64,000 bases of DNA from an uncultured virus (IMG/VR IMGVR_UViG_3300027808_000022) (taxonomy: Duplodnaviria; Heunggongvirae; Uroviricota; Caudoviricetes), in the IMG/VR virus record IMGVR_UViG_3300027808_000022; one strand, 5' to 3'. The first letter of the stretch is position 1; each line of letters opens with the position of its first letter. Below are positions 49,424-64,000 of the stretch, piece by piece. Both the position numbers and the translations under genes were made by a program. Under the pieces are notes generated by a model, which had not been told where the DNA came from, made no database searches, and saw only the letters and a program-made list of their open reading frames with translations.

Positions 49424-49437
49424 AGTTATGATTTTAG

Positions 49438-49511: not shown

Positions 49512-49516
49512 AAATA

Positions 49517-49702: not shown

Positions 49703-49715
49703 GATTATTGTGTTT

Positions 49716-49792: not shown

Positions 49793-49811
49793 ATTTATGT
49801 TTTAATATATA

Positions 49812-50099
49812 TTACTTTCCTTGTTTTTTGTAAACATAAGTGATGGTATCACCAATGTTGTACTTCCTCAAAGAAGTAAACTCACTGCTGTCTGACATGA
49901 AATACTTGTACTTCCTGTCAAGTTCAATTGTGCTGTGAGGTGGCAATTGAACCATTGAATCAATAACGAACTTTTCAACTACATCACCTTTTTCAATCAA
50001 AGGTTTCTGTTTACAAGCTCCTAACATAGTGGCAAGAATAATAGATAAAATAATCCATAAGGAAAAATAAAGTCGGGGGTCTTTTAATATGTTTTTCAT
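49812..50099 (-). CDS. Putative membrane/lipoprotein
   Basis: Hydrophobic N-terminus ending LGAC; start after TACCTTTG promoter. Confidence 0.55.
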   Translation of the reverse strand: MKNILKDPRLYFSLWIILSIILATMLGACKQKPLIEKGDVVEKFVIDSMVQLPPHSTIELDRKYKYFMSDSSEFTSLRKYNIGDTITYVYKKQGK

Positions 50100-50100
50100 G

Positions 50101-50652: not shown

Positions 50653-50714
50653 ATATAATAAATATATTGATTGTCGTTAAAATTAGATTTGGTCAAATAT
50701 TTTTTTAACGATTG

Positions 50715-50790
50715 TAGCGTAGACTGGATTCGAACCAGCGTGCCTCTGCTCCCAAAGCAGATGAGATAAACCTGACTCCTCTACTACGCT
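50715..50790 (-). tRNA. tRNA-Pro(UGG)
   Basis: TCTGC-TTTGGGA-GCAGA. Confidence 0.85.
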
Positions 50791-50799
50791 ATTTGTTTG

Positions 50800-50869
50800 T
50801 GGACACTGTGGGAATCGAACCCATACGTTCTGATTGCAAATCAAACGGTCTGCCGTTGACATCAGGCCC
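50800..50869 (-). tRNA. tRNA-Ala(UGC), atypical
   Basis: TTTGA-TTTGCAA-TCAGA; G3.U70 present; irregular acceptor and D arms. Confidence 0.7.
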
Positions 50870-50880
50870 TTTTATTTTTG

Positions 50881-50952
50881 CGGTCCCACCGGGAATCGAA
50901 CCCGGCACTTTGCCGTGACAGGGCAATATTATAGCCGATTAACTACAGGACC
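50881..50952 (-). tRNA. tRNA-Asp(GUC)
   Basis: TTGCC-CTGTCAC-GGCAA; G73. Confidence 0.9.
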
Positions 50953-51020
50953 GTAAGTTAGTAAACCCGGGCCCAACAAGCCGTGATAAACACGGAAGGG
51001 CCCTTTTTAAGATTTACTTT

Positions 51021-51096
51021 TGGAGCGAGAGACCAGGTTCGAACTGGCGACCCTCAGTTTGGTAAACTGATGCTCTACCGACTGAGCTACTCTCGC
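51021..51096 (-). tRNA. tRNA-Gly(ACC)
   Basis: TCAGT-TTACCAA-ACTGA; GCG acceptor, U73, CCA. Confidence 0.88.
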
Positions 51097-51101
51097 TTTT
51101 G

Positions 51102-51173
51102 AGCGAGTGGGGAGAATCGAACTCCCATATCCAGCTTGGAAGGCTGGAGTAATAGCCTTTATACTACACTCGC
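51102..51173 (-). tRNA. tRNA-Gly(UCC)
   Basis: CCAGC-CTTCCAA-GCTGG; U73. Confidence 0.9.
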
Positions 51174-51180
51174 TTTTTTC

Positions 51181-51262
51181 GAGTCAGAGTAGTCACGGCC
51201 ACCTCTTATCCTTCTGACTCTTGATGTAAAAGTGGCCAATGTGGCACGACCCAAGTTACATC
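51181..51262 (-). ncRNA. Candidate two-hairpin (kissing-loop) RNA
   Basis: Stems GATGTAA/TTACATC and GAGTCAGA/TCTGACTC with complementary loops GGCCAC/GTGGCC. Confidence 0.5.
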
Positions 51263-51265
51263 CAT

Positions 51266-51339
51266 TGGTTGCGGACCCGAGACTCGAACTCGGAACTATG
51301 GGTTATGAGCCCATTATGTTACCATTACACCAACCCGCG
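51266..51339 (-). tRNA. Initiator tRNA-fMet(CAU)
   Basis: C1:A72 mismatch, GGG/CCC anticodon stem, CTCATAA loop, CCA. Confidence 0.9.
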
Positions 51340-51348
51340 ATTTATTTG

Positions 51349-51420
51349 TACTCGGTAGGGGAGTCGAACCCCTCTTTCCAGGATGAAAACCTGGCATCCT
51401 AACCGATAGATGAACCGAGC
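51349..51420 (-). tRNA. tRNA-Glu(UUC)
   Basis: CCAGG-TTTTCAT-CCTGG. Confidence 0.9.
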
Positions 51421-51433
51421 AATTATTTTTTTC

Positions 51434-51455
51434 TTACCAATACGTCAAAGAACTT
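51434..51455 (-). promoter_or_regulatory. boxA-like element before tRNA array A
   Basis: AAGTTCTTTGACGTATTGGTAA, identical to 58371-58392. Confidence 0.65.
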
Positions 51456-51486
51456 TTTTGTTCTGTTGTCTTATTCAACAACAATA

Positions 51487-51518
51487 CAAAGTTAATACAT
51501 TTTTTTAATACTACCAAA
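51487..51518 (-). promoter_or_regulatory. Bacteroidota sigmaA-type promoter between attenuator A and array A
   Basis: TTTG-N20-TAACTTTG. Confidence 0.6.
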
Positions 51519-51525
51519 CAAACAC

Positions 51526-51557
51526 AAAAAAAACCCATCCTTTCGAGATGGGTTTTT
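51526..51557 (-). terminator. Attenuator terminator A
   Basis: AAAAACCCATCT-CGAAA-GGATGGGTTTTTTTT; 5' arm complementary to GAGATGGG in leader A. Confidence 0.85.
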
Positions 51558-51578
51558 GTAAGATATTTTTTTACAATA

Positions 51579-51647
51579 TTATCCCATCTCCACTTTGGAA
51601 GTATCAGCCTCTGTTGCTGGTGTGCCGAATATGAATATGGTTTTCAT
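51579..51647 (-). CDS. Leader peptide A (22 aa) MKTIFIFGTPATEADTSKVEMG
   Basis: ATG..TAA read directly; A-rich start; ends in anti-terminator sequence. Confidence 0.75.
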   Translation of the reverse strand: MKTIFIFGTPATEADTSKVEMG

Positions 51648-51704
51648 TGAATGTATTATTATTTGATTTCTTATTAAATATAATAAACTTTTAAAAAGTG
51701 TCAA

Positions 51705-52979
51705 TTAAAACGCCAAAGAATTTACATAACTTACCGATTTTTGTACAGACTTTTCAATTGTTTTAATAATTGAGTCCAAATTTAACTCGGCAACATTACC
51801 AATTGAGATTCTAAACCATCCTTTGTTACTCTTTGAACCAAAATATTCAAACGGAACAATTCCCAACCCACAGGTATTAATTAAGAACGAAATATACTCT
51901 TCTGTGGATGAAAATGAATGAACATAACCCAAGTAAACCGAAATATAAATTCCACCATCAGGTTTTTGGTAATCAACATTATGACCTTTGTTTTTCAATT
52001 CTTCCAACTTGTCACAGATTTTATCTGATATAAATTCATACGATTTTGTTACATAGTTTATGTGAGAAATGTAATCTTCATAATCTACTCTGATGTACGC
52101 ATCCAATGCTCGTTGTTCAGGTTTTGGTGCCCATGCTCCAATGTGAGACAAAACTTCGGTTATCTTTCCAATAATATCTTTTGGACCAAACAACCAACCA
52201 ACACGAACACCAGTTGCGTTTAATGATTTTGAAATACCATCAGCACAAATCAAATAATCTCTGATTTCAGGACATAAAGTTAATGGGTGGATAAACAAAC
52301 CTTCTTTGGTGATGTCAGAATAAATCTGGTCAAAGAACAAATACAATGGTCTTGAACCTACTTGTGTTGACCTGATTTTATTTTCTCTCACAATCAACTC
52401 ACAAATACCTTTCAGAACTTCGGGGTCAATTACACGACCTGTTGGATTTTGTGGCGAACAAATGCAAACCAATGATGTTTTATCACTTATTCTACCGTCA
52501 ACATCTTCAACGGTTGGAAAAAATGAATTTTCAGGTGTACATTCAATTTCTTCTTTTTGTGCATTATGTAAAAAACAATAGTGGTTATTATTCCAAGATG
52601 GTACAGGATAAATCACCTCTTCATTCGGATTTACCGTGGCTTTATAAACCGTATAAATCAATGGACGAACTCCACCACCAATTAAGATTTCTTCAGGTGA
52701 ATAATCAACATTGAACTGATGTTTAATGTGTTTGGAAACAGATTCCCTTAATTCAAGTTCTCCTTGTGAGTTTGGATAGTTGGTTAAATCCCACTCGTAA
52801 GCATCTTGAATGTGTTTTCTTAATTTTGAGGGTATTGGCCATAGTTTGGAATTAAAGTCACCTATGGTTAGGTTAGATACTGGTTTTGTTTTAGCAATTT
52901 CTTTGATTTGTTGTGAGATTTTAATAATTTCAGAGCCAACAATATTGTTCCCTACATTTGATAATTTTTCCATTATCAA
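51705..52979 (-). CDS. Class I/II PLP-dependent aminotransferase (aspartate aminotransferase-like)
   Basis: CSPQNPTG, FDQIY, DGISKSLNATGVRVGW, WFRIS. Confidence 0.9.
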   Translation of the reverse strand: MIMEKLSNVGNNIVGSEIIKISQQIKEIAKTKPVSNLTIGDFNSKLWPIPSKLRKHIQDAYEWDLTNYPNSQGELELRESVSKHIKHQFNVDYSPEEILIGGGVRPLIYTVYKATVNPNEEVIYPVPSWNNNHYCFLHNAQKEEIECTPENSFFPTVEDVDGRISDKTSLVCICSPQNPTGRVIDPEVLKGICELIVRENKIRSTQVGSRPLYLFFDQIYSDITKEGLFIHPLTLCPEIRDYLICADGISKSLNATGVRVGWLFGPKDIIGKITEVLSHIGAWAPKPEQRALDAYIRVDYEDYISHINYVTKSYEFISDKICDKLEELKNKGHNVDYQKPDGGIYISVYLGYVHSFSSTEEYISFLINTCGLGIVPFEYFGSKSNKGWFRISIGNVAELNLDSIIKTIEKSVQKSVSYVNSLAF

Positions 52980-53001
52980 AAGTATAAGACACTAATAAGA
53001 A

Positions 53002-54561
53002 TTATTCAAATATTTTACTATAAAATTTGTCAAAGTTTGGTCCTTTAACCAAACCACTTTTTCCTTGTCTGGCACTAATACCTGCCATATTTGACGCCGA
53101 AAAGAAACTACTATATTGACCAGGACCACTTCTTCTACCTATTTGAGTTAAAAATTCGTTCTTATTACCGACCTTACCTTCAGGAATGTTTTTAAGATAT
53201 TCCATAAATGCTTTGGTTAACGCACCTTTACCTGTGAAGGTGTATTTTGACCTGGTATAAGTCTTAGACTTTGTTGGTGGATACCTATCTAACAAGAATT
53301 CATCTTCACTAAGTTCTTTGTATATTGTATAATAAAATTCTTTATACAAATTATCTAATAAATTACTAGTTCTTCTTAAAACGTGTTCAGGGTCACTCTG
53401 TCTATCCTCATCCAATATTAAAGTTTTAGTATAGGTTGATTTTTTAACAATATTTTGGTCCGTATTATATGGTATTATCTCAGCGTCAAATCTAACGATG
53501 TGTTTTCCTATCATTACTTGAGTATTATAAACCTTAAAATAACAATCAATAACGCCATCTTCACTATAAGAAGTTTTTCCTTCTTTATCAATTTCTACAA
53601 CCTCCCAAGGCGTACTAATTCTAATACTCGTATTATCTCTATCACTATCTTCAACGCTTGGTCTTCCAATATAAAACTTTAATTTCCCACCTTTGAATTG
53701 GTATATCTCATTGTGGCTTGTAGTAACTTTTGGTATTATTTTATAAATAACATCCAAGACATCTTCTTTAGGGAATGATGTTTTATAGTCATTAACCATT
53801 GAATTATACGCATCTTTTGGCATATGAGCCAATACTGATTCTTTTTCTCTTGATGTCAATCTTTCGTCAGTTGAATCGTACCAAATTGAATCTGAATCAA
53901 ATTTTCCATTCTTTGGTGCGTGAATGGCCATTTTGTAAAATTTATTATCCCTGTCAACATTTTTTAATATTAAATAATACAAGTTTCCATTTGAACTATA
54001 TTGATTGAAATACGATGGATTACCTTTCATTGTTGTACACCATCTTGTACCTGAACCATAATAACAAGATGCGGTAAATGATTTTGGTTTTATAACCAAC
54101 AACGTATCGTTTTCAAAAATTTTATCTATTTCTTTCTTGGCTAATTTTTCTGTCTGTTTGGTCTCAACGTCAGTTTTAATCTTTTGAGCTTCATTGAAAA
54201 AATCTTGTATATTTGTACTGTATTGTCTAAACTCAGGATATTTGAATTTTGATTTGTGTTTTTCAAATGTATCTAAAGAAGCAACAATCTTGTCAATTTC
54301 ACTCCTCATTCTAAATATTAGAGTTCTTGCTCTGTCTTTGTCTAAAGGCTCAGCTTCACCTGAATAATAATTTACGGTATAATAATAATCCAAAATATCA
54401 TTAAGATATTTGTAATTAGTCTCTTTTATAAAAGGTTCACCAATTAAAAAATCATACGCAGACGCATCATCCATGTAAGTGGATATCATCTTTCTTTCAC
54501 CATCAATACTTTTTTGGAATTTCTTAAATGAGTCTTCCTTACGACCTTCAAATAAAATCAT
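53002..54561 (-). CDS. Hypothetical protein with ASCYYGSGTRWCT domain (paralogue 2)
   Basis: 519 aa; N-terminus ILFEGRKED resembles FLQEGKKED of paralogue 1. Confidence 0.75.
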   Translation of the reverse strand: MILFEGRKEDSFKKFQKSIDGERKMISTYMDDASAYDFLIGEPFIKETNYKYLNDILDYYYTVNYYSGEAEPLDKDRARTLIFRMRSEIDKIVASLDTFEKHKSKFKYPEFRQYSTNIQDFFNEAQKIKTDVETKQTEKLAKKEIDKIFENDTLLVIKPKSFTASCYYGSGTRWCTTMKGNPSYFNQYSSNGNLYYLILKNVDRDNKFYKMAIHAPKNGKFDSDSIWYDSTDERLTSREKESVLAHMPKDAYNSMVNDYKTSFPKEDVLDVIYKIIPKVTTSHNEIYQFKGGKLKFYIGRPSVEDSDRDNTSIRISTPWEVVEIDKEGKTSYSEDGVIDCYFKVYNTQVMIGKHIVRFDAEIIPYNTDQNIVKKSTYTKTLILDEDRQSDPEHVLRRTSNLLDNLYKEFYYTIYKELSEDEFLLDRYPPTKSKTYTRSKYTFTGKGALTKAFMEYLKNIPEGKVGNKNEFLTQIGRRSGPGQYSSFFSASNMAGISARQGKSGLVKGPNFDKFYSKIFE

Positions 54562-54590
54562 ATATATAAATACTCACAATTATGTATTTG

Positions 54591-54664
54591 TAGCGAGGGA
54601 GGGAATTGAACCCCCCACCTCAGGGTTATGAATCCTGCGCTCTAACCGACTGAGCTACCTCGCC
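54591..54664 (-). tRNA. Elongator tRNA-Met(CAU)
   Basis: GGCGAGGTAGCTCAG...CAGGA-TTCATAA-CCCTG. Confidence 0.85.
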
Positions 54665-54668
54665 ATGA

Positions 54669-55280
54669 TTATTCTATGGTTTCACCATCCAATGTATAAA
54701 TCATACATGAGGATGATTTCCCTGAATTATCCAAACAATCTTCAATTTCTAATGGTTGTCCTTTAAAAAAGACTTGACCGATAAAATCATAATCACCTTC
54801 TGGTGTTCCTATTGAACCTGATGAGTACGTAAAATCTGTCGGAGTTGGTACTGTGTCAGACTCAAGTGAAAATTTAAACATTCCACCTTTGTTTTCATCA
54901 ATACTCAAATAGACATTTGTTGGTCCTTCTTTTTGAGGAAACGCATTATACTCTCTGTACTCATACTTTTCTTCAAAATCTTCAATTGTTTCGTATAAGT
55001 CGGCGGTTTCATCAATACCAAACTCTAATACTTTATTTTCTTCTTCATCAAGAAGTTCAAAGTGCATTGTACCATTGTCAAACGCTTCGGTTTTGTGAAA
55101 GATTTCACCGTCCCAAAAATCAAGGTCCAAAAGTTCATCTAAATCAAAACGGATTTCATGAAGTTCAGAAAAACCTTCCTCTTCCATTTTATCTTTAATA
55201 ATTTGTATTTGTTCGTCAGTTAGAGATTTGCAGACTGCCTCAAAAGACCATCCATAAGTGTTAAGTGTGTATTTAGCCAT
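54669..55280 (-). CDS. Acidic hypothetical protein
   Basis: 203-aa ORF, TATATTTG promoter upstream. Confidence 0.7.
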   Translation of the reverse strand: MAKYTLNTYGWSFEAVCKSLTDEQIQIIKDKMEEEGFSELHEIRFDLDELLDLDFWDGEIFHKTEAFDNGTMHFELLDEEENKVLEFGIDETADLYETIEDFEEKYEYREYNAFPQKEGPTNVYLSIDENKGGMFKFSLESDTVPTPTDFTYSSGSIGTPEGDYDFIGQVFFKGQPLEIEDCLDNSGKSSSCMIYTLDGETIE

Positions 55281-55315
55281 ACGGCAAATATAAATTATAA
55301 ACCGTGATTCGTCAA

Positions 55316-55753
55316 TTATTTTAAGAATCTTAATTTGTATAATGTTGAGTAAATCAATTCTTGAACTCCATCAATTTGATTTTGAATATAAGATTCTTTA
55401 ACCGATGTCCTATTTTTTTCAATATTTTCATCTAATTCTTTAAAATAAGCTATTACTTGTTCTGTTGATTTGTAATCAACTGTTTTAATTGTTTTATAAC
55501 CAGTAATTATTTCGTATTTTCCTTGATAACTTTCAACAATATTATCAACTAACCCATCAATTCCATCATAATATTCTTGTAAAGCTTTATGTTCAGAAAA
55601 TGATGATTGTGATTTTGTCTGCCAATGAAAGATATGTACTTGAGACTGTGAATGTAATAATGTTGCAATCATATCAACCACATCGGCAGTTTCAGTTGCA
55701 GGATTTGATTTTGATGATAAACCATTTAAAAGGTCTCTTTTTGTAATTTCCAT
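55316..55753 (-). CDS. Ferritin/Dps-like four-helix protein
   Basis: HIFHWQT...EHKAL.EYY....D..VESYQG. Confidence 0.7.
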   Translation of the reverse strand: MEITKRDLLNGLSSKSNPATETADVVDMIATLLHSQSQVHIFHWQTKSQSSFSEHKALQEYYDGIDGLVDNIVESYQGKYEIITGYKTIKTVDYKSTEQVIAYFKELDENIEKNRTSVKESYIQNQIDGVQELIYSTLYKLRFLK

Positions 55754-55774
55754 ATCAATAAATATACTGATGTG

Positions 55775-56458
55775 TTAATATGTCTTAAACTTCATTTCTT
55801 TGATAACACAATTTCCAATTTTTTTATGTCCTGATGGTGCCATATGACAAAGTCCATCCCAACAATCCGATTTTGTAATCACACGAGTATTAATCACTTT
55901 TCCACCAACAATTTTTTTTATCAATTCATTCTGAAATTTGGAATACTTAACTCTGTAGTTTGGATTTTCTGGTGTGTTGATGCAAATTAATGGGTCAAAT
56001 CCGGTAATTACAACTGGTTTAACACCTTTGGAATTACAAATGTTTACAATTTTTTGAATGTTCTTTACTGCGCTTTCAATGGTGATTTTGCTGTTATACA
56101 TATCATTGGCACCTCCATAGATAAAACAATAATCTAAACCATTGTGAATAGATTCTTTTGCTCTTTCTAACATCCAACCTGTGGTTTTTCCACCAACAGA
56201 TATGTTATTCATTCTCATTTTTGTTTTGTTGGATAGAGTATATTGCCAACCATTAGGATTTGATGTGTGAGAATCACCAATAAAAAGAACGTATTTTCCT
56301 TTTACATCCACAATTGTGTCTTGTGGTTTAATTTTTACCGTATCAATTTTAACGGTATCTTCAATTTGTTTATTGTTACCCCAAACTTTCCAACTTGTTA
56401 TGAATCCTAAAATTGCTATAACAATGACCAAAATAATTGCTTTTACTAAATTTTTCAT
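55775..56458 (-). CDS. SGNH/GDSL hydrolase with N-terminal membrane anchor
   Basis: FIGDSHT, GG.T, GGAND, DGLCH motifs. Confidence 0.85.
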   Translation of the reverse strand: MKNLVKAIILVIVIAILGFITSWKVWGNNKQIEDTVKIDTVKIKPQDTIVDVKGKYVLFIGDSHTSNPNGWQYTLSNKTKMRMNNISVGGKTTGWMLERAKESIHNGLDYCFIYGGANDMYNSKITIESAVKNIQKIVNICNSKGVKPVVITGFDPLICINTPENPNYRVKYSKFQNELIKKIVGGKVINTRVITKSDCWDGLCHMAPSGHKKIGNCVIKEMKFKTY

Positions 56459-56470
56459 ATTTTTTATTAA

Positions 56471-56562
56471 AAAACACTCTCAAGCTCTCTACTCCCAGTT
56501 CCGAGGAATTGTATCTTACTTAGCCCGTCTCACCACTGTGTGGGTACTTGAGTTTATGTTTT
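56471..56562 (-). ncRNA. Candidate structured RNA
   Basis: Closing stems AAAACA/TGTTTT and CTCAAG/CTTGAG, inner CCCA/TGGG; GC-rich within tRNA transcript. Confidence 0.4.
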
Positions 56563-56564
56563 TG

Positions 56565-56642
56565 TAGTCAGGACAGGATTCGAACCTGTAACACCGGTTT
56601 GACCACTTACGTGGTTGCGTCTATCCATTCCGCCACCTGACT
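56565..56642 (-). ncRNA. tRNA-Leu-like RNA with GNRA tetraloop in place of the anticodon loop
   Basis: Perfect acceptor AGTCAGG/CCTGACT with A73, Leu-type D arm GGCGGAATGGATAGACGC, perfect T arm; anticodon arm ACCAC-GTAA-GTGGT. Confidence 0.7.
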
Positions 56643-56644
56643 AT

Positions 56645-56716
56645 AGTTGTCAGTCTCTCCTGACCGTCACCCCCACTCCGAAGGTATGAGCCTTCATATG
56701 TGATGCTGGGTTAGCT
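56645..56716 (-). ncRNA. Candidate structured RNA
   Basis: Hairpins GAAGG-CTCATA-CCTTC and GTCAG-GAGAGA-CTGAC in a GC-rich spacer. Confidence 0.4.
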
Positions 56717-56719
56717 TTG

Positions 56720-56793
56720 TGGTGTGAACGGGAATCGAACCACGTGGCACGTAGGGTTTCAATCTACTGCTCTACCTGCTGAGCTACCACACC
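56720..56793 (-). tRNA. Second tRNA-Phe(GAA), atypical
   Basis: GTAGA-TTGAAAC-CCTAC with A:C mismatch; bulged T stem. Confidence 0.6.
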
Positions 56794-56820
56794 ATTATTG
56801 TTATACAAAGTTAAAATATA

Positions 56821-57297
56821 TTATCCAATTTTCCAAGCTCCAATTATGTGTTTTTTTATTTTTTTACCGTCCTCAGGGTTACCAATAACAACACCATCTT
56901 TAATGGTAAATGCGTGACCTTTAACAACCACCATGTAAGAACCAACAGGATATTTTTTAATGAACGAAAATGTTGTTGTTGCTCTTAATTTTTTAACACC
57001 TTTAACTACAACATAATACAACATGGTATTGTGTTCCTCAGAAATAATTTGAACGTCTTTACCGTTAATTTGTTTACCATTCTTTGATAACAAATTCATG
57101 CCAGTACCAAGTAAAAAAGTACCTTTACCATTTTTTCTCTTGAAAGTTTCTTTAACAAATTGGTGGGCGGAATCATAGTCCATATCCGCGGCTGATGCAA
57201 TTGCCCTAACAACACAATCGTTTTTTTCAGATTTGGCAATTTTTGATTCAGTATATCCTTTGATTGCGTTTGAAGATGATATAAACCCCTTTTCCAT
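56821..57297 (-). CDS. Hypothetical protein (NDCVVRA...GHAF; possible Cys/His hydrolase fold)
   Basis: Start MEKGF after TATATTTG promoter. Confidence 0.65.
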   Translation of the reverse strand: MEKGFISSSNAIKGYTESKIAKSEKNDCVVRAIASAADMDYDSAHQFVKETFKRKNGKGTFLLGTGMNLLSKNGKQINGKDVQIISEEHNTMLYYVVVKGVKKLRATTTFSFIKKYPVGSYMVVVKGHAFTIKDGVVIGNPEDGKKIKKHIIGAWKIG

Positions 57298-57343
57298 ACT
57301 ACAAATATACAACAGGTATTTGACATTACAAAAAAATATTTTG

Positions 57344-57416
57344 CTCCCCGGATAGGATTTGAACCTATGACCTATCGCTTAACAGGCGAGTGCTCTAACC
57401 ACTGAGCTACCGAGGA
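57344..57416 (-). tRNA. tRNA-Asn(GUU)
   Basis: TCGC-CTGTTAA-GCGA; G73. Confidence 0.9.
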
Positions 57417-57422
57417 ATGTTG

Positions 57423-57504
57423 TACCAAAGGTGGGAGTCGAACCCACACGTCTTTAAGACATTAGTTTCTAAGACTAATGCGGCTACCGTTACGCCACTT
57501 TGGT
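57423..57504 (-). tRNA. tRNA-Leu(UAG)
   Basis: TTAGT-CTTAGAA-ACTAA; long variable arm. Confidence 0.9.
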
Positions 57505-57510
57505 ATTTTG

Positions 57511-57581
57511 CGCAAGTGGAAGGACTCGAACCCTCGCCAAAAGTTTTGGAGACCTTTATGCTACCATTACACCACACTTAC
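57511..57581 (-). tRNA. tRNA-Trp(CCA)
   Basis: AAGGT-CTCCAAA-ACTTT; G73. Confidence 0.88.
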
Positions 57582-57588
57582 GTATTTG

Positions 57589-57663
57589 TGATTCCTGAGG
57601 GACTCGAACCCCCACATCTTCTCGTCCGTAGCGAGATGTTTTATCCAATTAAACTAAGGAACC
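57589..57663 (-). tRNA. tRNA-Arg(ACG)
   Basis: TCTCG-CTACGGA-CGAGA. Confidence 0.88.
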
Positions 57664-57666
57664 ATT

Positions 57667-57741
57667 TGGGGTGACTGATGGGATTCGAACCCACGACACT
57701 CGGCACCACAAGCCGATGCTCTACCACTGAACTACAGTCAC
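57667..57741 (-). tRNA. tRNA-His(GUG)
   Basis: TCGGC-TTGTGGT-GCCGA; C73-CCA; no encoded G-1. Confidence 0.9.
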
Positions 57742-57743
57742 AG

Positions 57744-57817
57744 AGTCCATAGTTGGAATCGAACCAACGAATAACAGTTTTGCAGACTGTCCCTTTGAAC
57801 CGCTCAGGCATATGGAC
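57744..57817 (-). tRNA. tRNA-Cys(GCA)
   Basis: ACAGT-CTGCAAA-ACTGT; U73. Confidence 0.9.
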
Positions 57818-57879
57818 TTATATTCTATAATCCTCCAAATCTAGTAAAAAAAGTGAGTTTTGGAGGATTATAAGTTTTG

Positions 57880-57961
57880 TGCCAGCAGTAGGACTCGAAC
57901 CTACGAACTCAAATGAGAGCGGGTTTACAATCCGCCGCAATTGCCGCTATGCGATACTGGC
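57880..57961 (-). tRNA. tRNA-Tyr(GUA)
   Basis: GCGGA-TTGTAAA-CCCGC; long variable arm. Confidence 0.88.
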
Positions 57962-57968
57962 ATTTTTG

Positions 57969-58041
57969 TCTTTCCTGTTGGATTTGAACCAACGACATCT
58001 TGGATGTAAGCCAAGTGCTCTTCCAACTGAGCTAAGGAAAG
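57969..58041 (-). tRNA. tRNA-Val(UAC)
   Basis: CTTGG-CTTACAT-CCAAG. Confidence 0.88.
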
Positions 58042-58047
58042 ATATTG

Positions 58048-58121
58048 TGACCCCATCGGGACTCGAACCCGAAACCCCCGTGTTAAAAGCACGGTGCTCT
58101 AGCCAATTGAGCTATAAGGTC
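58048..58121 (-). tRNA. tRNA-Lys(UUU)
   Basis: CCGTG-CTTTTAA-CACGG. Confidence 0.9.
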
Positions 58122-58127
58122 ATATTG

Positions 58128-58198
58128 TTACCCCTGAAGGATTCGAACCTCCACTAAGTGGACCAAAACCACTCGTCCTGCCGTTAGACGAAAGGGTA
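58128..58198 (-). tRNA. tRNA-Gln(UUG)
   Basis: AGTGG-TTTTGGT-CCACT; U1-A72. Confidence 0.88.
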
Positions 58199-58203
58199 AT
58201 TTA

Positions 58204-58280
58204 TGGTTGGTGATACAGGACTTGAACCTGTGACCCCTACGGTATCAGCGTAGTGCTCTAACCAACTGAGCTAATCACCA
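58204..58280 (-). tRNA. tRNA-Ile(GAU)
   Basis: CTACG-CTGATAC-CGTAG; CCA. Confidence 0.9.
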
Positions 58281-58289
58281 ATGTATTTG

Positions 58290-58362
58290 TGGGGTAGACA
58301 GGTATCGAACCTGTTCCTTCGGATTTTCAGTCCGGCGCAATGACCTCATCTGCCACTACCCC
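58290..58362 (-). tRNA. tRNA-Phe(GAA)
   Basis: CGGA-CTGAAAA-TCCG. Confidence 0.88.
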
Positions 58363-58370
58363 ATTTTTGG

Positions 58371-58392
58371 TTACCAATACGTCAAAGAACTT
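58371..58392 (-). promoter_or_regulatory. boxA-like element before tRNA array B
   Basis: AAGTTCTTTGACGTATTGGTAA, identical to 51434-51455. Confidence 0.65.
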
Positions 58393-58398
58393 AAAAAC

Positions 58399-58429
58399 AA
58401 AAAAACCCGAACCTTGTGAGTTCGGGTTT
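58399..58429 (-). terminator. Attenuator terminator B
   Basis: AAACCCGAACT-CACAA-GGTTCGGGTTTTTTT; 5' arm complementary to AGTTCGGGT in leader B. Confidence 0.88.
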
Positions 58430-58450
58430 CCTTTTTTAGGCTACTACGTG

Positions 58451-58546
58451 TTAACTTATAACACCCGAACTTGAAAATACGCGAAGATACCAATTCTGAC
58501 AGAATTGAATGACATGTTTCACGATTTGTTTATTTACGAGTTTCAT
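58451..58546 (-). CDS. Leader peptide B (31 aa) MKLVNKQIVKHVIQFCQNWYLRVFSSSGVIS
   Basis: ATG..TAA read directly; TATCTTTG promoter at 58570-58577; anti-terminator in codons 26-28. Confidence 0.85.
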   Translation of the reverse strand: MKLVNKQIVKHVIQFCQNWYLRVFSSSGVIS

Positions 58547-58595
58547 TGTGTTTAGTATTAAATATGGTACAAAGATACAAAAGTTTCTTGATATG

Positions 58596-58856
58596 TTAAA
58601 TATTTTTTTCGTTTTTATTTTTTAATAACCAGTTGGCTCCGACTACAAACCCTTGTTTCCATTTTGTAATATCATCATCACACATCCCTTCACTGTATTG
58701 TTGATATTTGTCATCAGCGCCAATATGAATCATTTGTTGGATTCTTTTTTCTATAAAACCGGGCTTAGTTTCAAACTCAGGTTCTCCCAATTCAACCATA
58801 CCATTTTTCCACTTTTTCCAAGTGTCAAAATCTTTTAAATCTTCAATGTTAATCAT
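58596..58856 (-). CDS. Hypothetical protein
   Basis: 86-aa ORF, GFVVGANW motif. Confidence 0.6.
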   Translation of the reverse strand: MINIEDLKDFDTWKKWKNGMVELGEPEFETKPGFIEKRIQQMIHIGADDKYQQYSEGMCDDDITKWKQGFVVGANWLLKNKNEKNI

Positions 58857-58869
58857 ATTATTTTTTTAA

Positions 58870-59286
58870 TTATAACCTGTCTTTTACAATATTCAATAAG
58901 TCCTCATTAAAAGGTACTCCATGTCTTGAATCAAATTCATCTTCCAATCTTTCAGTTGACATATCATTTTTCTTCAATAAAATATACGCTCCCAAATCAG
59001 CTTCAATTTCATCTTTTTCAGACCTCGGTCCGTTGTGTCCCAATAACAAATGTGAGATTTCATGAGCTTCAATAAATTTCATGTCATCCATAGTTAAACC
59101 ATCATCACCCAAAAATATTTCACCGTCAATAAAAATTGTTTTGAATTCTGGTGCAAGAAATCCATAACCGTATTGGTCAAAAATTTTTCTCATTGCACTA
59201 TAATTTGGATTTTCTTTGAATACCAAATTAATATTCATGTTTGGGATAAAACTACTTTTGTACGCTATGATGTCTTGGTCTTCCAT
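58870..59286 (-). CDS. HExxH metallopeptidase-like protein
   Basis: AHEISHLLLGH...EIEAD. Confidence 0.7.
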   Translation of the reverse strand: MEDQDIIAYKSSFIPNMNINLVFKENPNYSAMRKIFDQYGYGFLAPEFKTIFIDGEIFLGDDGLTMDDMKFIEAHEISHLLLGHNGPRSEKDEIEADLGAYILLKKNDMSTERLEDEFDSRHGVPFNEDLLNIVKDRL

Positions 59287-59288
59287 TT

Positions 59289-59852
59289 TTATAATAAATA
59301 TTCCAATACTTTTTCTTTTATGCCCGTTTGTTTAATGCCTTCTTTATTTTCGGGTGTTAATACAAAGTTCTTCAATCCCCAAGTCTTATCGTGCACATCC
59401 GTTAATGACATATTCAAATCATCAATTGCCACCCAATGTGTGATTACAGGATTCTGACCAATATATTGCGCAATCTCCAAACTACGAGTTTGTTCTAACT
59501 CCGATTTGTTGTGCCATGGGAAATCATCATAATCATCATATAAGATAGAATCGGTAAAGGCAATTGGTTTTTTAATAATACCTTTTGATTCGTAATATTC
59601 TCCCATCTCCTCAACTGTCGCCCAATTTTTCCAATCTGAAGATACAACAATTTCGGCACCTGTTTCCTCTAAGATTTCATTAAGAACTTTAACCGCCTCC
59701 TCATCAAAATTATCAAAACGATACTCAACGGGCATACTTAAAGTACTCATAGACAATTTACGTTTACCCCAACTTTTTTGTTTTTTGAAACGATTACCCC
59801 AATTATCAGACAGACATATCACACCATCGTGGTCCAAAAATATAACTTTCAT
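59289..59852 (-). CDS. HAD-family protein (Swiss-army-knife RNA-repair-like HAD)
   Basis: IFLDHDGV, IVVSSDW, R..EI, WVAIDD. Confidence 0.75.
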   Translation of the reverse strand: MKVIFLDHDGVICLSDNWGNRFKKQKSWGKRKLSMSTLSMPVEYRFDNFDEEAVKVLNEILEETGAEIVVSSDWKNWATVEEMGEYYESKGIIKKPIAFTDSILYDDYDDFPWHNKSELEQTRSLEIAQYIGQNPVITHWVAIDDLNMSLTDVHDKTWGLKNFVLTPENKEGIKQTGIKEKVLEYLL

Positions 59853-59960
59853 AACACAAAGATAATAAAAGTTATTCTTGTATCAAAGAAATATCGTAAT
59901 AAAAACTATTGTATCATATTTTACAATTTGACAAATATGTTGTATTTTTTTTAAAAAACT

Positions 59961-60677
59961 ATGTCATATTTAAATACACCAATTCCCGTAGTAGAGGCTT
60001 ACATTAGAGGAAACTTCTTAAGAAACCAAGAAGATTCTCACGATAAAAAATTCCCTTGTTACATTTTTGGAATGTCGTCAATTCCAGCACAAGCACCATT
60101 ATTTCACTTTATCATGGAGGATGGGGCATTATGGTGGAGAATGCCAATACAGGCATTTTGTTGGAAAGAAGATGCACCTGAACAAGAACTTGATGAATTA
60201 GTGTTATGGGATTCATTTTCATATCATGTTGGAGCAACAGCATTCCCTATGTTAAAAAACAAGACATGTAAATTCATATCAAGACGTAGAGTAGAATATA
60301 CGGGCAAATATTTATTTACCTTAGATTGGGGGTCATCTTCAGACATGGGAGACACAGATTTTGGATTAAGTGAATTCCCATCACAACACAAATGTGGTCA
60401 TTTCATTGCCATGGATAATGGAAACTTTGCAATACAACCAAACAATAGGTTTGTGCTTCATGACCCATCGTTCACAGTAAAAGATGAATTGGTTATACAT
60501 AGAAAATACAATACCACATTATGGACTGCTGAAAGAAATGGAAGATGGGTCACACCTGATACTGACATTATGAATTACGACCATACCGATTTAGAAAAAG
60601 GTGAGAGTAATAAAAAACGGTCAGATGAATATAATAAAATTGATTCCGAACGTTTAAAGAATGAAGGTTCAATTTAA
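59961..60677 (+). CDS. Conserved phage hypothetical protein
   Basis: 238-aa ORF, YLFTLDW...HKCGH...NGNFAIQPNNR. Confidence 0.7.
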   Translation: MSYLNTPIPVVEAYIRGNFLRNQEDSHDKKFPCYIFGMSSIPAQAPLFHFIMEDGALWWRMPIQAFCWKEDAPEQELDELVLWDSFSYHVGATAFPMLKNKTCKFISRRRVEYTGKYLFTLDWGSSSDMGDTDFGLSEFPSQHKCGHFIAMDNGNFAIQPNNRFVLHDPSFTVKDELVIHRKYNTTLWTAERNGRWVTPDTDIMNYDHTDLEKGESNKKRSDEYNKIDSERLKNEGSI

Positions 60678-61290
60678 CCACCAAAATGGATTCTTTTTAG
60701 ACGGGAGAATATTTTGTGAAGTTTACGGTATTGCGGAAAACGAATCAAATGATGAGTTATTAAATTCAGGATGGTTACCGTCAATGGAGGAAAAAAATAT
60801 TTGGTATCAATCAAGAAGTCATAGAATAGAACTATCTAATTTTGAGATATCAAAAAAACGAAGACACATAATTAAAAAGTTAACCTGTGAAGTAAGTGAT
60901 TATATTCAAAACCAAGAAATAGATGATTTCTTTCAAGAATACTACAATGATAAGGATTTTGATATTATGGATGATTATAATAACTGTTCAAAGTTTTTTG
61001 AACCAAAAATATTGTACTTAAGATTAGAAGGTAAATTAGTTGCGGTGGGAAGATACTTAGAAAATAAAAAGTCTAATGTATTTTTAAATCTTGCTTATGA
61101 TAACAATAATTTAAAGTTATCTCTTGGTACTAATTTATTTTACATACTCGCAGATATTACCAAGAAACAAAATAAAGATTATTTGTATATCTATGAATCA
61201 TATGATGATAGTTTTTCATATAAACAAAAATTACCTAACTTAAATTTTTGGAGTGGGACTAAATGGATATCAAATGCTATTTATAAATAA
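60661..61290 (+). CDS. Aminoacyl-tRNA-protein transferase-like (ATE1/Bpt-like GNAT)
   Basis: L..GW, SRSHRI, YD.....LSLGT, YLYI..SY.....YK pattern. Confidence 0.5.
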   Translation: MKVQFNHQNGFFLDGRIFCEVYGIAENESNDELLNSGWLPSMEEKNIWYQSRSHRIELSNFEISKKRRHIIKKLTCEVSDYIQNQEIDDFFQEYYNDKDFDIMDDYNNCSKFFEPKILYLRLEGKLVAVGRYLENKKSNVFLNLAYDNNNLKLSLGTNLFYILADITKKQNKDYLYIYESYDDSFSYKQKLPNLNFWSGTKWISNAIYK

Positions 61291-61292
61291 AA

Positions 61293-62015
61293 ATGGAAGA
61301 GGGTAATTTTAAAGTATTAGTTAATACAATTGAAGAACTAAAAAAATATAAAAAAGTTCTTTTATTAACTTGCTCTAACAGAGGTGAAGAAATTTCAAAA
61401 GAAGAAACACCAAAATCTACAATTTTAGCAAAAGTAATACATAACAATCTTAGTAATTCTACAATAATAGATGTTACTAAACTTAAAATTTATCCATGTG
61501 AGGGAAATGTTTCTTTAATGGAAGGAAACGTTTGTGGTGTTAAAGATGCTCTTTTAGACGACCCTGAGAAAAATCCATCAGGATATCATAGATGTTGGGC
61601 TTCAATTCATAATCCTGACGATGAACTTTGGAAAATAAGCAAAGAACTTTTTGAATCTGACTGTGTAGTTTTTTTCGCGTCAGTTAGATGGGGAGCTGCT
61701 AATATGTTTTATCAAAAACTTATAGAAAGACTAAATTGGATTAATAATAGATATATCCCATATGGTGAAGACAACATAATAAAAAATACAACATCAGGTT
61801 TTATAATTGTTGGACAACACAAATATGGTGATGATATTGCCGAACTTCAGTATAACAATCACGAATATTATGGTTTTAAAGTTAACAAAAAACTATATTG
61901 GAATTGGAACGCCGAAAATATTGAATACGATGATGAAACCTTACAAGGATATATTGAAAGTTATCCCGAATTTTTTAAAGATTTTAAGATAAAAAAGAAA
62001 CCTGTTCTTGATTAA
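61293..62015 (+). CDS. Flavodoxin-like NAD(P)H-dependent FMN reductase family
   Basis: SNR...KST, IYPCEG...C, DD.L......ESDCVVFFASVRWG. Confidence 0.7.
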   Translation: MEEGNFKVLVNTIEELKKYKKVLLLTCSNRGEEISKEETPKSTILAKVIHNNLSNSTIIDVTKLKIYPCEGNVSLMEGNVCGVKDALLDDPEKNPSGYHRCWASIHNPDDELWKISKELFESDCVVFFASVRWGAANMFYQKLIERLNWINNRYIPYGEDNIIKNTTSGFIIVGQHKYGDDIAELQYNNHEYYGFKVNKKLYWNWNAENIEYDDETLQGYIESYPEFFKDFKIKKKPVLD

Positions 62016-62686
62016 AACTCTTCTTGATGGAAGACAACATCTTCATATGCATATTCATTCCAAGTAAATTTTAATGTAATTGTACCCGCTCTTGAATCAA
62101 TCATGAAATTTCCAAAAGAACCTTCATCATTTTCCCAACCACCATACACTCCCAACATATCGTATAAATAATCATCTAATCCTGGTACACTATCTACGTT
62201 TCTTTCTGGTTTACTACCAGAATCAACATATAAGGTACCATCAATATATCCATCATCACCACCACCATTAAACGTAACTTCAGCAAATGGAAATATGTCC
62301 TCTTGTTTAAGAAAATTCATAATCTCTTTTAGATTTTCATCATCTTCTTCACTTCTTTCAGTTTCACCTGAAGGTCCGTCAACAATTTCTTGATAAGTTC
62401 CACTAATAGTAACTGTTCTTGTTTGGGGATATAACGCAAAAGTTATTGCATTCAAATTATCTTCATCAAAATCTGAAGCATTTTCACCAACATATTCGGT
62501 AATTATCTCACTAATATCAAATGGTAATTTTTGTGGTGTTTCATGTTTTTCAATTCCACAACCAAAATTTCTACCGTTATATGGTGTGTGATTCCAAGGG
62601 TCAACATCCATCTCAAGATACTCACAACCACGAGAAGATGCGTATTTGGATATTAATTCAAAAATTGATTTTTGTTTTGGGGTCAT
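62012..62686 (-). CDS. Acidic hypothetical protein (F.GGGDDG...GWENDEGSFG)
   Basis: ORF with TATTTAT just upstream of MTPKQ. Confidence 0.65.
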   Translation of the reverse strand: MTPKQKSIFELISKYASSRGCEYLEMDVDPWNHTPYNGRNFGCGIEKHETPQKLPFDISEIITEYVGENASDFDEDNLNAITFALYPQTRTVTISGTYQEIVDGPSGETERSEEDDENLKEIMNFLKQEDIFPFAEVTFNGGGDDGYIDGTLYVDSGSKPERNVDSVPGLDDYLYDMLGVYGGWENDEGSFGNFMIDSRAGTITLKFTWNEYAYEDVVFHQEEF

Positions 62687-62697
62687 AGTAATAAATA

Positions 62698-63051
62698 TCA
62701 ATCATCTACTTTGAGGTCCAATGTTCTTAACATCCACATTGGTTTCTTTTCAGCTTGTAAAGCATCTATCCAATCTTTTGCCGTTGGAATATAATTAAAA
62801 CAATCTTCTTTCACGTGTTGTTCACCAACATACCTGGTGTAGACAGTTTTACCGTCACTATTAACAAATGATTTACCAAAGATTTTTTCCATCTCAAAGA
62901 TACCTTCTGAGTGGTGACGAAACATTCTATGATTTGAATGTCCAACCCACGCCTTTGTTTCATCTAACCAATCGTGTAAATGAATATAATCTTCAAATTT
63001 TCCACCAAATTTTTTGGCTGAAGATTTTGCATGAATTAAAGGATGTGCCAT
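62698..63051 (-). CDS. His-rich conserved hypothetical protein
   Basis: HP..HA.SSAKKFGG, H.W.D, HR.FRHH..G, EQHV.ED. Confidence 0.7.
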   Translation of the reverse strand: MAHPLIHAKSSAKKFGGKFEDYIHLHDWLDETKAWVGHSNHRMFRHHSEGIFEMEKIFGKSFVNSDGKTVYTRYVGEQHVKEDCFNYIPTAKDWIDALQAEKKPMWMLRTLDLKVDD

Positions 63052-63186
63052 ATTGAAATGATAAAACTAATTAAACAGAATGATAAAACGGCAATTGTTG
63101 CTACCGTACCAATATTTCTATAATAGGACTCCACTTGTTCTTTGGACCTACCTTGCCATTCGTCTTTATTCCAAAATTTCATTTTG

Positions 63187-63260
63187 TACCCCCGACAGGA
63201 CTCGAACCTGTGACCTACGGTTTAGAAAACCGTTGCTCTATCCAGCTGAGCTACAAGGGC
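63187..63260 (-). tRNA. tRNA-Arg(UCU)
   Basis: ACGGT-TTTCTAA-ACCGT. Confidence 0.9.
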
Positions 63261-63263
63261 ATT

Positions 63264-63626
63264 TTATTTAAATATTACTTGAATTATAATAATCATAACC
63301 GCCAAAGTCAAACTAGCCCATGTTTTTGCTGACATCCCTTGATTTAGAAATAAATATGTTAAAATCGCGTACATTACAATCCCAATTGAAAATCCCAAAA
63401 ATCGTTGTGGCCACATTAAACCCATGAATGCTTTTTCACCGTAACCTGTTGCCAATATAAAAAGATATGTAAATGGTACACCTACAAAAGACATAATTAA
63501 TGTATTTCTTTTTGCCCAATCCCACATAAATTGAGCATTCAGTTGAAACCATATTCCAGTTTGACCTATTAAGAAAAACAAACAAGTGAGTAAGAAATAC
63601 TTTAAATTAATATTCATGTGATACAA
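63264..63626 (-). CDS. Small multi-pass membrane protein
   Basis: Four hydrophobic segments. Confidence 0.65.
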   Translation of the reverse strand: MYHMNINLKYFLLTCLFFLIGQTGIWFQLNAQFMWDWAKRNTLIMSFVGVPFTYLFILATGYGEKAFMGLMWPQRFLGFSIGIVMYAILTYLFLNQGMSAKTWASLTLAVMIIIIQVIFK

Positions 63627-63677
63627 AGATAAATCAAATATTTGACCTTTTCAAGGAATACACCTATTTATGTCTAA

Positions 63678-63791
63678 ATGAACAACACGGCAATGAATAT
63701 TGGGCAAACAGAGATTGTGTATCTTAACGGTACGCCTTCGTTATTGTTTGATAAACCTATGACCCTTTTGAAACGCCGAACCATATATTAA
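63678..63791 (+). CDS. Putative leader peptide C (37 aa) MNNTAMNIGQTEIVYLNGTPSLLFDKPMTLLKRRTIY
   Basis: ATG..TAA after TATTTAT; contains sequence complementary to the base of the downstream terminator. Confidence 0.55.
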   Translation: MNNTAMNIGQTEIVYLNGTPSLLFDKPMTLLKRRTIY

Positions 63792-63804
63792 AACGTGTTT
63801 AGAA

Positions 63805-63833
63805 GGGTCCTGAGAAATCAGGACTTTTTTTTT
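63805..63833 (+). terminator. Terminator/attenuator C
   Basis: GGTCCTGA-GAAA-TCAGGACT followed by T tract. Confidence 0.8.
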
Positions 63834-63869
63834 ACACATAAATTTCGTAAATTTGTAAAACATATTGTA

Positions 63870-64000
63870 ATGGATAAAGTATTAGTATTAAACTCAGACT
63901 ACACACCCTTGAACGTAACTTCGGTTCGTAAGGGATTTGTATTGGTAATAAAAGGAAAGGCTGAGGTATTAAAACAAGACTCACAAAAATTGTCATCATC
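63870..64000 (+). CDS. N-terminus of HNH (McrA-like) endonuclease, truncated by window
   Basis: MDKVLVLNSDYTPLNVTSVRKGFVLVIKGKAEVL, typical VLVLN..Y.PL N-terminus. Confidence 0.7.
   Translation, partial: MDKVLVLNSDYTPLNVTSVRKGFVLVIKGKAEVLKQDSQKLSS

Follow-up and report, generated by a model that had tools for sequence, protein, structure and literature searches.

Attenuators that respond to more than one amino acid are known from enterobacteria, in which the thr leader carries Thr and Ile codons and the ilv leaders carry Ile, Leu and Val codons. In the pheST attenuator, a leader peptide controls the genes of phenylalanyl-tRNA synthetase, and T-box riboswitches, which sense the supply or charging of tRNA, switch between terminator and antiterminator ahead of translation-related genes. 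The boxA of ribosomal RNA (rrn) operons is an antitermination signal and the site of NusB and S10. To our knowledge, the genes regulated by attenuators so far comprise amino-acid operons and a few synthetase genes, and we know of essentially nothing on how phage tRNA genes are regulated; why phages carry such genes has been debated for decades. Here we analyse a 64,000-nucleotide (nt) stretch, referred to as the window, of an uncultured virus (IMG/VR IMGVR_UViG_3300027808_000022; parent record 117,610 bp), whose two large tRNA arrays are each headed by a promoter-like site, a short leader open reading frame (ORF), an intrinsic terminator and a box with an rrn-type boxA core. We consider it about 85% probable, judging from sequence, that each large array is under the control of a ribosome-mediated (leader-peptide) attenuator that couples its transcription to the speed at which ribosomes decode the array's codons.

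Leader units ahead of the two tRNA arrays

All coordinates refer to the window, and all of its features described here lie on the minus strand. Array 1 (57343–58362) comprises 12 tRNA genes: Phe, Ile(GAU), Gln, Lys, Val, Tyr, Cys, His, Arg(ACG), Trp, Leu(UAG) and Asn. The unit at its head (unit 1) begins with a promoter-like region, P1 (58570–58599), made up of a −33/−35-like hexamer at 58599–58594 and a TAnnTTTG-type −7 element at 58577–58570 (sigma-70 match, 9/12). Leader ORF 1 follows at 58451–58546, with 31 sense codons and a stop (protein P0002), and an intrinsic terminator of 15 pairs lies at 58399–58433, its 5′ arm core at 58427–58419 and a T-run after the stem. Between the terminator and the first tRNA is a 22-nt box (58371–58392) with an rrn-type boxA core, the same sequence in both units of the window. 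A sequence-only reading of this DNA had described the ORF, the terminator and the 12 tRNAs with their order and anticodons, all of which we recovered: ARAGORN called 12 of 12 tRNAs, each also matched by the Rfam tRNA model, and the terminator is among the two strongest of an 11-kb scan in which 13 were found and 5.4 expected.

The same reading had noticed that codons 2–24 of the leader (58543–58475) use only the 12 amino acids of array 1, and use all of them. Recounting bore this out, with 23/23 codons inside the set and 12/12 types present. For random nucleotides at genome composition the chance of such a run is 3.5e-6; under proteome composition none of 2,000,000 draws produced it, and a single one of the 476 small ORFs in the 117.6-kb record, leader 1 itself, has this property. 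Because AT-rich sequence favours the set of array 1, with 69% of random codons of this genome falling inside it, our case is not based on the 3.5e-6 figure. The claim that the match extends to codon boxes, against the bias of the genome, stood in part. Both Leu codons of the run are CTN (CTC/CTT), a box that provides 22% of the Leu codons in the genome's long ORFs, and its Arg codon is CGC, with CGN at 27% of Arg codons in the same ORFs; the choice of Ile codons, however, is uninformative, as ATC and ATT together account for 74% of those in the genome. Codons 26–28 (58463–58471), the candidate 5′ segment of an antiterminator, form the perfect 9-nt complement of the terminator 5′ arm (58427–58419) that had been reported, and none of 2,000 shuffles gave one as long.

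The other large array of the window is headed by the same design, with promoter-like site, leader, terminator and box in the same order (unit 2). Its P1 region (51677–51704) is the best sigma-70-type match of the 11-kb scan (11/12) and is conserved in relatives. Leader ORF 2 (51579–51647) has 22 codons and a stop, and its final codons include an 8-nt segment (51583–51590) complementary to the 5′ arm of the unit 2 terminator (51529–51557; 12 pairs). A second promoter-like −7 motif, P2 (51487–51494), which in the window is confined to unit 2, lies between this terminator and the second, identical copy of the 22-nt box (51434–51455). Array 2 then runs without interruption over 50714–51420 (Glu, Met, Gly(UCC), Gly(ACC), Asp, Ala(UGC) and Pro). 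An inserted gene for an HNH endonuclease (50101–50652; PHROG matches) separates tRNA-Pro from tRNA-Thr, and past it the array resumes at 48895–49792 (Thr(UGU), Ile(UAU) and Met). In one relative (L064) array 2 is contiguous and lacks the HNH gene. All eight amino-acid types of array 2 are present in leader 2, 15 of whose 21 post-start codons belong to the array's set, and its two Ile codons are both ATA, read by the tRNA-Ile(UAU) of array 2. No such unit was found at solitary tRNAs elsewhere in the genome.

Two genes of array 2 have unusual features. The tRNA-Ala(UGC) gene (50869–50800) was missed by ARAGORN even at relaxed thresholds and was recognized by Rfam (29.5 bits) and by an nhmmer profile of phage tRNAs; one tRNA-Gly (51021–51096) has the uncommon anticodon ACC where relatives have GCC at the same place. 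In several relatives, other ORFs are inserted between tRNA genes.

Leader content and array content across phages

Relatives were gathered as 41 IMG/VR loci with a homologue of the neighbouring 424-amino-acid gene (50–100% identity), and 22 units, 21 of them non-identical, were set by coordinates in 13 of these phage contigs. Among deposited phages we found no close relatives: blastn matches were limited to tRNAs, and tblastn with the 424-amino-acid protein gave only aminotransferase-like matches below 30% identity. The tRNAs are divided among arrays differently from one genome to the next, and the leaders follow. A leader ORF is present in 22/22 units; it holds every amino-acid type of its array in 14 of the 21 distinct units and lacks exactly one type in the other 7. 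In genomes with several units, 16 of 17 leaders fit their own array better than the other array or arrays, the exception being L068:11323. Conservation in relatives, the lack of which the sequence-only reading had named as grounds for giving up its proposal, was found for the small ORF, the terminator and the complement between ORF end and 5′ arm alike.

That leader codon content should co-vary with array anticodons was a prediction of that reading, and it held against permuted and frame-shifted controls. For 8 representative units and 20 amino acids, array and leader agreed in presence 80 times and in absence 42 times; an array amino acid was missing from the leader once, and a leader amino acid was missing from the array 37 times (Fisher p = 2e-15). 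Among the 40,320 permutations of these units, the true leader–array pairing ranked first and alone, whether scored by match or by coverage; as the 8 representatives were chosen by hand and several of the leader types are homologues of one another, the figures are evidence of association and not a tally of independent events. For 37 distinct leader DNAs, the ORF frame gave a match of 0.71 and a coverage of 0.97, against 0.41–0.49 and 0.60–0.74 in the other five frames. Homologous leaders differ by substitutions that remain inside the array set in 74 of 106 cases, compared with 54.3 expected from single-nucleotide neighbours (p = 8e-5).

Agreement extends to isoacceptors, with 109 of 133 split-family codons readable by the isoacceptor of the array (88.5 expected from genome codon usage). 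Internal Arg codons are CGN in leaders whose array carries Arg(ACG) and AGA where it carries Arg(UCU); likewise, Ser is encoded by AGT alongside Ser(GCU) and by TCN alongside Ser(UGA). Individual rearrangements have counterparts in the leaders. In L064, whose array has gained tRNA-Ser(UGA), leader codon 17 is TCG (Ser) instead of Gln. In L074, tRNA-Pro heads a different array, the leader of that array has three Pro codons, and the leader of the array that carries tRNA-Pro in other genomes is without its Pro codon. If the attenuator reading is true, this rewriting of the codon barcode when tRNA genes change arrays makes the leaders a readable record of which tRNAs are transcribed together.

A hold-out set was drawn by scanning IMG/VR with a 19-nt terminator pattern, which gave 97 loci that a script processed blind to composition. 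The rules demanded a complementary 5′ arm and took the longest ATG-initiated ORF of 15–50 codons ending 5–75 nt upstream, together with all downstream tRNAs on the same strand. A 5′ arm was found in 50 of the 97 loci, an ORF in 50 of these 50 and downstream tRNAs in 49 of them, yielding 16 new leader peptides, 14 of which had at least five tRNAs within the 3-kb flank. For these 14 leaders the four counts, in the order array and leader, array only, leader only and neither, were 139/2/76/63 (Fisher p = 6e-21). With one representative for each of nine leader families, grouped by their first four residues, 25 of 362,880 permutations reached the observed match and 28 of 362,880 the observed coverage. 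One array of the hold-out, with tRNAs for His, Ser, Tyr, Leu, Pro, Phe and Gln, has a leader in which codons for His, Ser, Tyr, Leu, Pro and Gln predominate.

The same design appears in an unrelated megaphage lineage. The records LR745206.1 (634,780 bp) and LR756501.1 (735,411 bp) share only tRNA-level blastn matches with the window and contain 61 and 66 tRNA matches, respectively, grouped in arrays; the accessible text of PMC7162821 assigns every one of its largest genomes to the Mahaphage clade, for which Bacteroidetes are the predicted hosts. At ten of the array heads, a small ORF is accompanied by a promoter-like motif and by a terminator that is unrelated in sequence. These arrays are sorted by amino acid, and their leaders resemble those of textbook attenuators: ahead of three tRNA-Gln genes, 7 of 15 post-start leader codons are Gln; ahead of five tRNA-Leu genes, 7 of 21 are Leu; the leader of an Arg–Ser pair has nine Ser codons and two CGN Arg codons; that of a Glu/Tyr array has a Tyr- and Glu-rich stretch; and ahead of an Asn/Arg/Leu/Val/Ile/Thr/Met array, 23 of the first 24 post-start codons are in the set. 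Across the ten units, leaders cover 31 of 32 array amino-acid types, none of 200,000 random pairings reached the observed match, and each leader is 1.6- to 12-fold enriched for the amino acids of its own array relative to the other nine leaders. The duplex between ORF end and terminator 5′ arm was equalled by only 0–2 of 500 shuffles in five units and was moderate in three. An eleventh unit has a Thr/Pro/Ala/Val/Arg/Gly-rich leader ahead of arrays running Arg...Thr...Val...Ala...Gly...Pro. Among the megaphage heads inspected, the Ile head of L327 and several single tRNAs behind protein genes lack a unit.

The RNA switch, the box and competing explanations

A perfect complement of 6–9 nt to the terminator 5′ arm was found at the ORF end or just past the stop in 19 of the 19 units processed, within a range of 23 nt before to 9 nt after the stop. 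L078 has no perfect complement of 5 nt or more, and a 7-bp pairing with one G-U was seen there by eye. Pair counts were made on 15 anchored rows, L082 among them and one (L078) wrongly anchored, and the 7-bp antiterminator helix is paired in 13–15 of the 15 rows at each position. Two of its positions have changed on both sides, one with C-G in 10 rows and T-A in 4, the other with T-A in 10, A-T in 3 and C-G in 1. At the C-G/T-A position the terminator helix tolerates the change only as a G-U wobble, indicating that the ORF-end segment is not just a copy of the terminator 3′ arm. In the relative L068, all three segments of unit 2 are altered in a compensatory manner.

Folding the leader with and without a ribosome footprint, as the sequence-only reading had proposed, produced the switch it expected when nascent RNA was modelled, that is, RNA up to but excluding the terminator 3′ arm, with a 30-nt footprint. 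In unit 1 the antiterminator forms without a ribosome and with the A site at codons 2–21, and is lost from codon 22–23 to the stop; in unit 2 the switch falls at codon 16–17. Matched codons thus lie almost entirely in the permissive range of these folds. For units 1 and 2, respectively, the predicted stabilities are −13.8 and −12.3 kcal/mol for the terminator and −16.9 and −14.9 kcal/mol for the antiterminator domain. The units combine the attributes of an attenuator: a short ORF behind a promoter (at the level of motifs), cognate codons, an intrinsic terminator and an antiterminator, formed with the 3′ portion of the ORF, whose pairing excludes that of the terminator.

The box proved to be a genuine boxA-type element, as had been suspected, with the core of the boxA found in the rrn spacers of Bacteroidota. 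Its 17-mer, with two purine positions left open, occurs at no fewer than 122 bacterial loci, mostly in Bacteroidota; of 20 loci scanned, 17 have it inside an rRNA operon, just upstream of the 23S gene and mostly just behind spacer tRNAs, and the box matches the rrn-type boxA of the Bacteroidota 16S–23S spacer in sequence. In the phage units, boxA probably renders the polymerase resistant to termination. Its placement behind the attenuator would make sense if a termination-resistant polymerase is assembled only after the decision has been taken, and the presence of a host rrn boxA there suggests that the phage borrows host antitermination machinery for long arrays split by homing-endonuclease genes. 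LR756501.1 has a boxA-like variant past the leader terminator of its Leu array (L328, about 880–900); other megaphage copies precede arrays without a leader, the Cys...Asp array of L327 being one example.

The promoter-like motif of unit 1 is present and its position is kept in relatives, but the 8-nt motif TAnnTTTG occurs in the window at chance frequency (124 times against 112 expected), and we therefore give no weight to the motif alone; what speaks for P1 is its conserved position upstream of the leaders of relatives. Together, host-type promoter motifs and the rrn-type box indicate a Bacteroidota host. A 294,914-bp IMG/VR contig has the same two boxes, once each, and a relative of 111,976 bp was rated 37% complete; the full genome is probably about 300 kb long, with the 117,610-bp record covering only part of it, and the phage is likely to be a jumbo phage of about that size from fresh water.

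We propose the following circuit. Host RNA polymerase would start at the host-type promoter and transcribe the short ORF, whose codons would sample every amino acid, and mostly the codon boxes, of the tRNAs downstream, and whose 3′ end would pair with the 5′ arm of the intrinsic terminator to form the antiterminator. A ribosome running smoothly to the end of the ORF would cover that segment, allowing the terminator to form and transcription to stop. With a ribosome lingering on an earlier codon (2–21 in unit 1, 2–15 in unit 2), or with none at all, the segment would remain free, the antiterminator would pre-empt the terminator and the polymerase would continue, read the rrn-type boxA, become resistant to termination and transcribe the array. 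Such a circuit would amount to a multi-input OR gate combined with a negative feedback loop, in which slow decoding leads to tRNA synthesis and sufficient supply turns it off. The phage thus probably makes the tRNAs of an array when ribosomes decode their codons slowly. The leader ORF is probably translated, folding models point to the direction of the switch given here, and the natural trigger may be a host tRNA pool that does not suit the codon use of the phage, a loss of host tRNAs during infection or tRNA-cleaving defences. The attenuator first proposed from unit 1 has since found support in the second unit of the window, in the conserved pairing, in covariation, in the megaphage lineage and in the nascent-RNA folds.

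Several observations weigh against the attenuator. Some concern the match itself: L068:11323 has only 10/22 codons in the set of its array and fits the other array slightly better, L076:1341, at an eroded array, has 9/28, codons 2–3 and the ORF tail often fall outside the array set, and units within a family are homologous, so that counts are not independent. Most amino acids are represented by only one to three codons per leader, so that delay at a single hungry codon would have to suffice. Others concern the RNA. Full-length equilibrium folds predict the terminator even with a ribosome at codon 5 or 10, and the model must assume, by analogy with classical attenuators, that the antiterminator forms first for kinetic reasons. 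In the L074:8418 leader type the antiterminator segment lies away from the stop, ending 23 nt before it, and a ribosome at the stop would not cover it. The duplex is weak in two of the ten megaphage units (53 and 106 of 500 shuffles as good), and one megaphage array of 10 tRNAs (Cys...Asp, L327) has no unit at its head. Of the 21 distinct terminator-to-tRNA segments, 14, unit 2 of the window included, have an exact TAnnTTTG after the terminator and before the box; in such P2-bearing units the array may be transcribed without read-through, the attenuator then at most adding to a basal level or having another output. Finally, the sole hint from RNA is one contig from four metatranscriptome runs, which were compared with the window as contigs. 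It covers 58439–58677 at full identity, a span that takes in the end of the upstream gene, P1 and the leader without reaching the terminator hairpin; DNA carry-over is possible, and contig ends do not prove transcript ends. Some tRNA pieces are covered by metatranscriptome contigs as well.

These last observations are also what an improbable alternative would draw on, in which the matched ORF is translated but its output is not read-through in cis: the leader would be a separate small gene, acting through a trans small RNA or a peptide, or an insulator, and P2 would drive the arrays. The 14 segments with a motif behind the terminator fit this explanation, as does the RNA contig that ends before the hairpin and is not joined to the array, and the accessible parts of PMC6614838 and PMC7968998 describe attenuator-derived trans-acting RNAs in bacteria. 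However, 7 of the 21 segments, unit 1 and six others, have no exact TAnnTTTG behind the terminator, one of the six having a version with one mismatch. In unit 1 the box directly follows the T-run with no P2, leaving read-through as the only visible route into the 12-tRNA array. A lone terminator, moreover, would need no conserved and co-varying complement in the end of an ORF, and the units are always found immediately ahead of the very array that they mirror in content. A different polarity or mechanism, with leader translation promoting read-through by blocking Rho or protecting the RNA, or with an effect on RNA stability or processing, seems to us slightly less probable still. Nothing specific speaks for it beyond the fact that the direction of the switch comes from folding models only. 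Against it, the stop codon lies 18–56 nt upstream of the terminator in the units of relatives, too far for a terminating ribosome to melt the hairpin; in most units that ribosome covers the antiterminator segment, and the three-segment layout is that of classical attenuators.

Two further explanations deny the leader any role in regulation. It could be a functional micro-protein whose composition resembles the array by coincidence, as the constant length of leader 1-type ORFs (31 codons in 5/5) might suggest. This is very unlikely: residues vary freely among relatives within the array set, the C-terminal part is dictated by RNA pairing, and leaders of different arrays differ strongly in composition, each mirroring its own array. 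Least credible of all is chance, that is, an accidental ORF in AT-rich intergenic DNA beside the terminator of the upstream gene, with a match that merely reflects AT-rich codons. The large fraction of random codons inside the set of array 1 speaks for it, and two other small ORFs of the genome have longer in-set prefixes. The low probability of leader 1 alone speaks against it, however, as do the permutation and frame controls and the replication of the design within the window, in 21 units of relatives, in the hold-out and in the other lineage. An attenuator thus remains our preferred explanation of the units.

Further RNA elements were seen in the window and its relatives. ARAGORN reported an odd tRNA with a 2-base anticodon at 56564–56642 (Rfam tRNA, 41 bits), and a 23-nt string that spans its T arm and the 3′ strand of its acceptor is found again and again between the tRNA genes of relatives. 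L069 (1440–6510) has about 14 partial matches to the tRNA profile and some Rfam tRNA matches of 90–110 nt; together with the window element these copies seem to form a family of tRNA-like elements whose middle part varies. Suppressor-like tRNAs occur in L060 (6634, anticodon CUA, just upstream of a leader unit) and in L093 (7539, anticodon UUA), which hints at stop-codon reading in part of the phage group. The profile match to tRNA-Trp in L067 (7766–7811), L082 (7065–7110) and L095 (3232–3277) ends at the start of the T arm and the sequence then diverges, so these genes are possibly interrupted or intron-bearing. A tmRNA gene was found on the minus strand of L086 (10405–10787; Rfam 73.7 bits) and L069 (15658–16048; 54.8 bits), and none was called by ARAGORN in the 117.6-kb record of the window. 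Several relatives carry, upstream of protein genes, a G-rich conserved stretch of about 280 nt without an ORF and with a long terminator at its end (L086, about 3100–3390; L068, about 7970–8270; L082, about 4450–4760; L071, 1–300). It is possibly a structured RNA, and the copy in L086 gave no Rfam match at gathering level.

Relation to known attenuators and to work on phage tRNAs

Control of tRNA arrays by matched leaders is apparently widespread in large phages of Bacteroidota. We lean, with less assurance than for the individual arrays, towards the wider view that codon-barcoded leaders are a general and so far undescribed form of on-demand control of tRNA genes in these phages and perhaps in others, each array having a sensor of decoding speed that replaces exactly those tRNAs that run short, including those cut by host anticodon nucleases. 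If true, tRNA genes would join the genes regulated by attenuators, and the phage would gauge decoding capacity codon by codon, providing an experimental handle on the choice between codon compensation and replacement of tRNAs lost to defence. The element would be both a homeostat and a counter-defence trigger, as well as a natural multi-input OR gate of about 170 nt with inputs legible from sequence. Leaders would also be of use in annotation, showing which tRNAs, odd tRNA-like genes included, share a transcription unit.

Work on phage tRNA arrays has dealt with the same kind of genes. In their accessible parts, PMC10264068 treats such arrays as a means of codon compensation or of replacing tRNAs that host defences attack, and PMC7162821 covers the tRNA repertoires of huge phages; both ask why phages carry tRNAs and not how the arrays are regulated. 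In the accessible main text of PMC7162821, supplements lying outside the search, the terms 'terminator', 'leader peptide' and 'attenuat' are absent. In the full-text literature, including the accessible part of PMC3082878 and with subscription-only papers and supplements outside its scope, no description was found of leader-peptide or attenuator control of tRNA genes or of phage tRNA arrays. Nor do described RNA families account for the units: no Rfam leader family reached its gathering threshold in the unit region, the best being Thr_leader over the terminator with 25.7 bits against the 55 required (E = 0.35), and over 48000–64000 no cis-regulatory family, T-box included, reached threshold, with no T-box match at E values up to 1.

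Like the thr and ilv leaders, the phage units have a promoter-proximal ORF that combines several amino acids, an antiterminator over the end of the ORF and, in the proposed circuit, read-through as the consequence of slow decoding. They differ in their phage setting and in their targets, which are tRNA genes and not biosynthetic enzymes. They also differ in sampling up to 14 amino acids, mostly by one to three codons each and not by runs, and in that the codon set of the leader copies the content of the array and moves with it between genomes. With pheST they would share the regulation of a translation component by the speed at which cognate codons in the leader are translated; pheST, however, has a single amino-acid input, a synthetase as its product and a cellular, not viral, setting. 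The T-box, unlike the phage units, binds uncharged tRNA directly, without an ORF and with one input per element. Like the boxA of rrn operons, with which it has the 17-mer in common, the phage box lies just upstream of genes for structured RNAs, whereas its position behind an attenuator and at the head of tRNA arrays has no counterpart there; the two are likened by sequence. By analogy, the units appear closest in logic to the multivalent thr and ilv leaders and closest in target to the pheST leader: leader-peptide attenuation is a known mechanism, and tRNA genes would be a new class of target.

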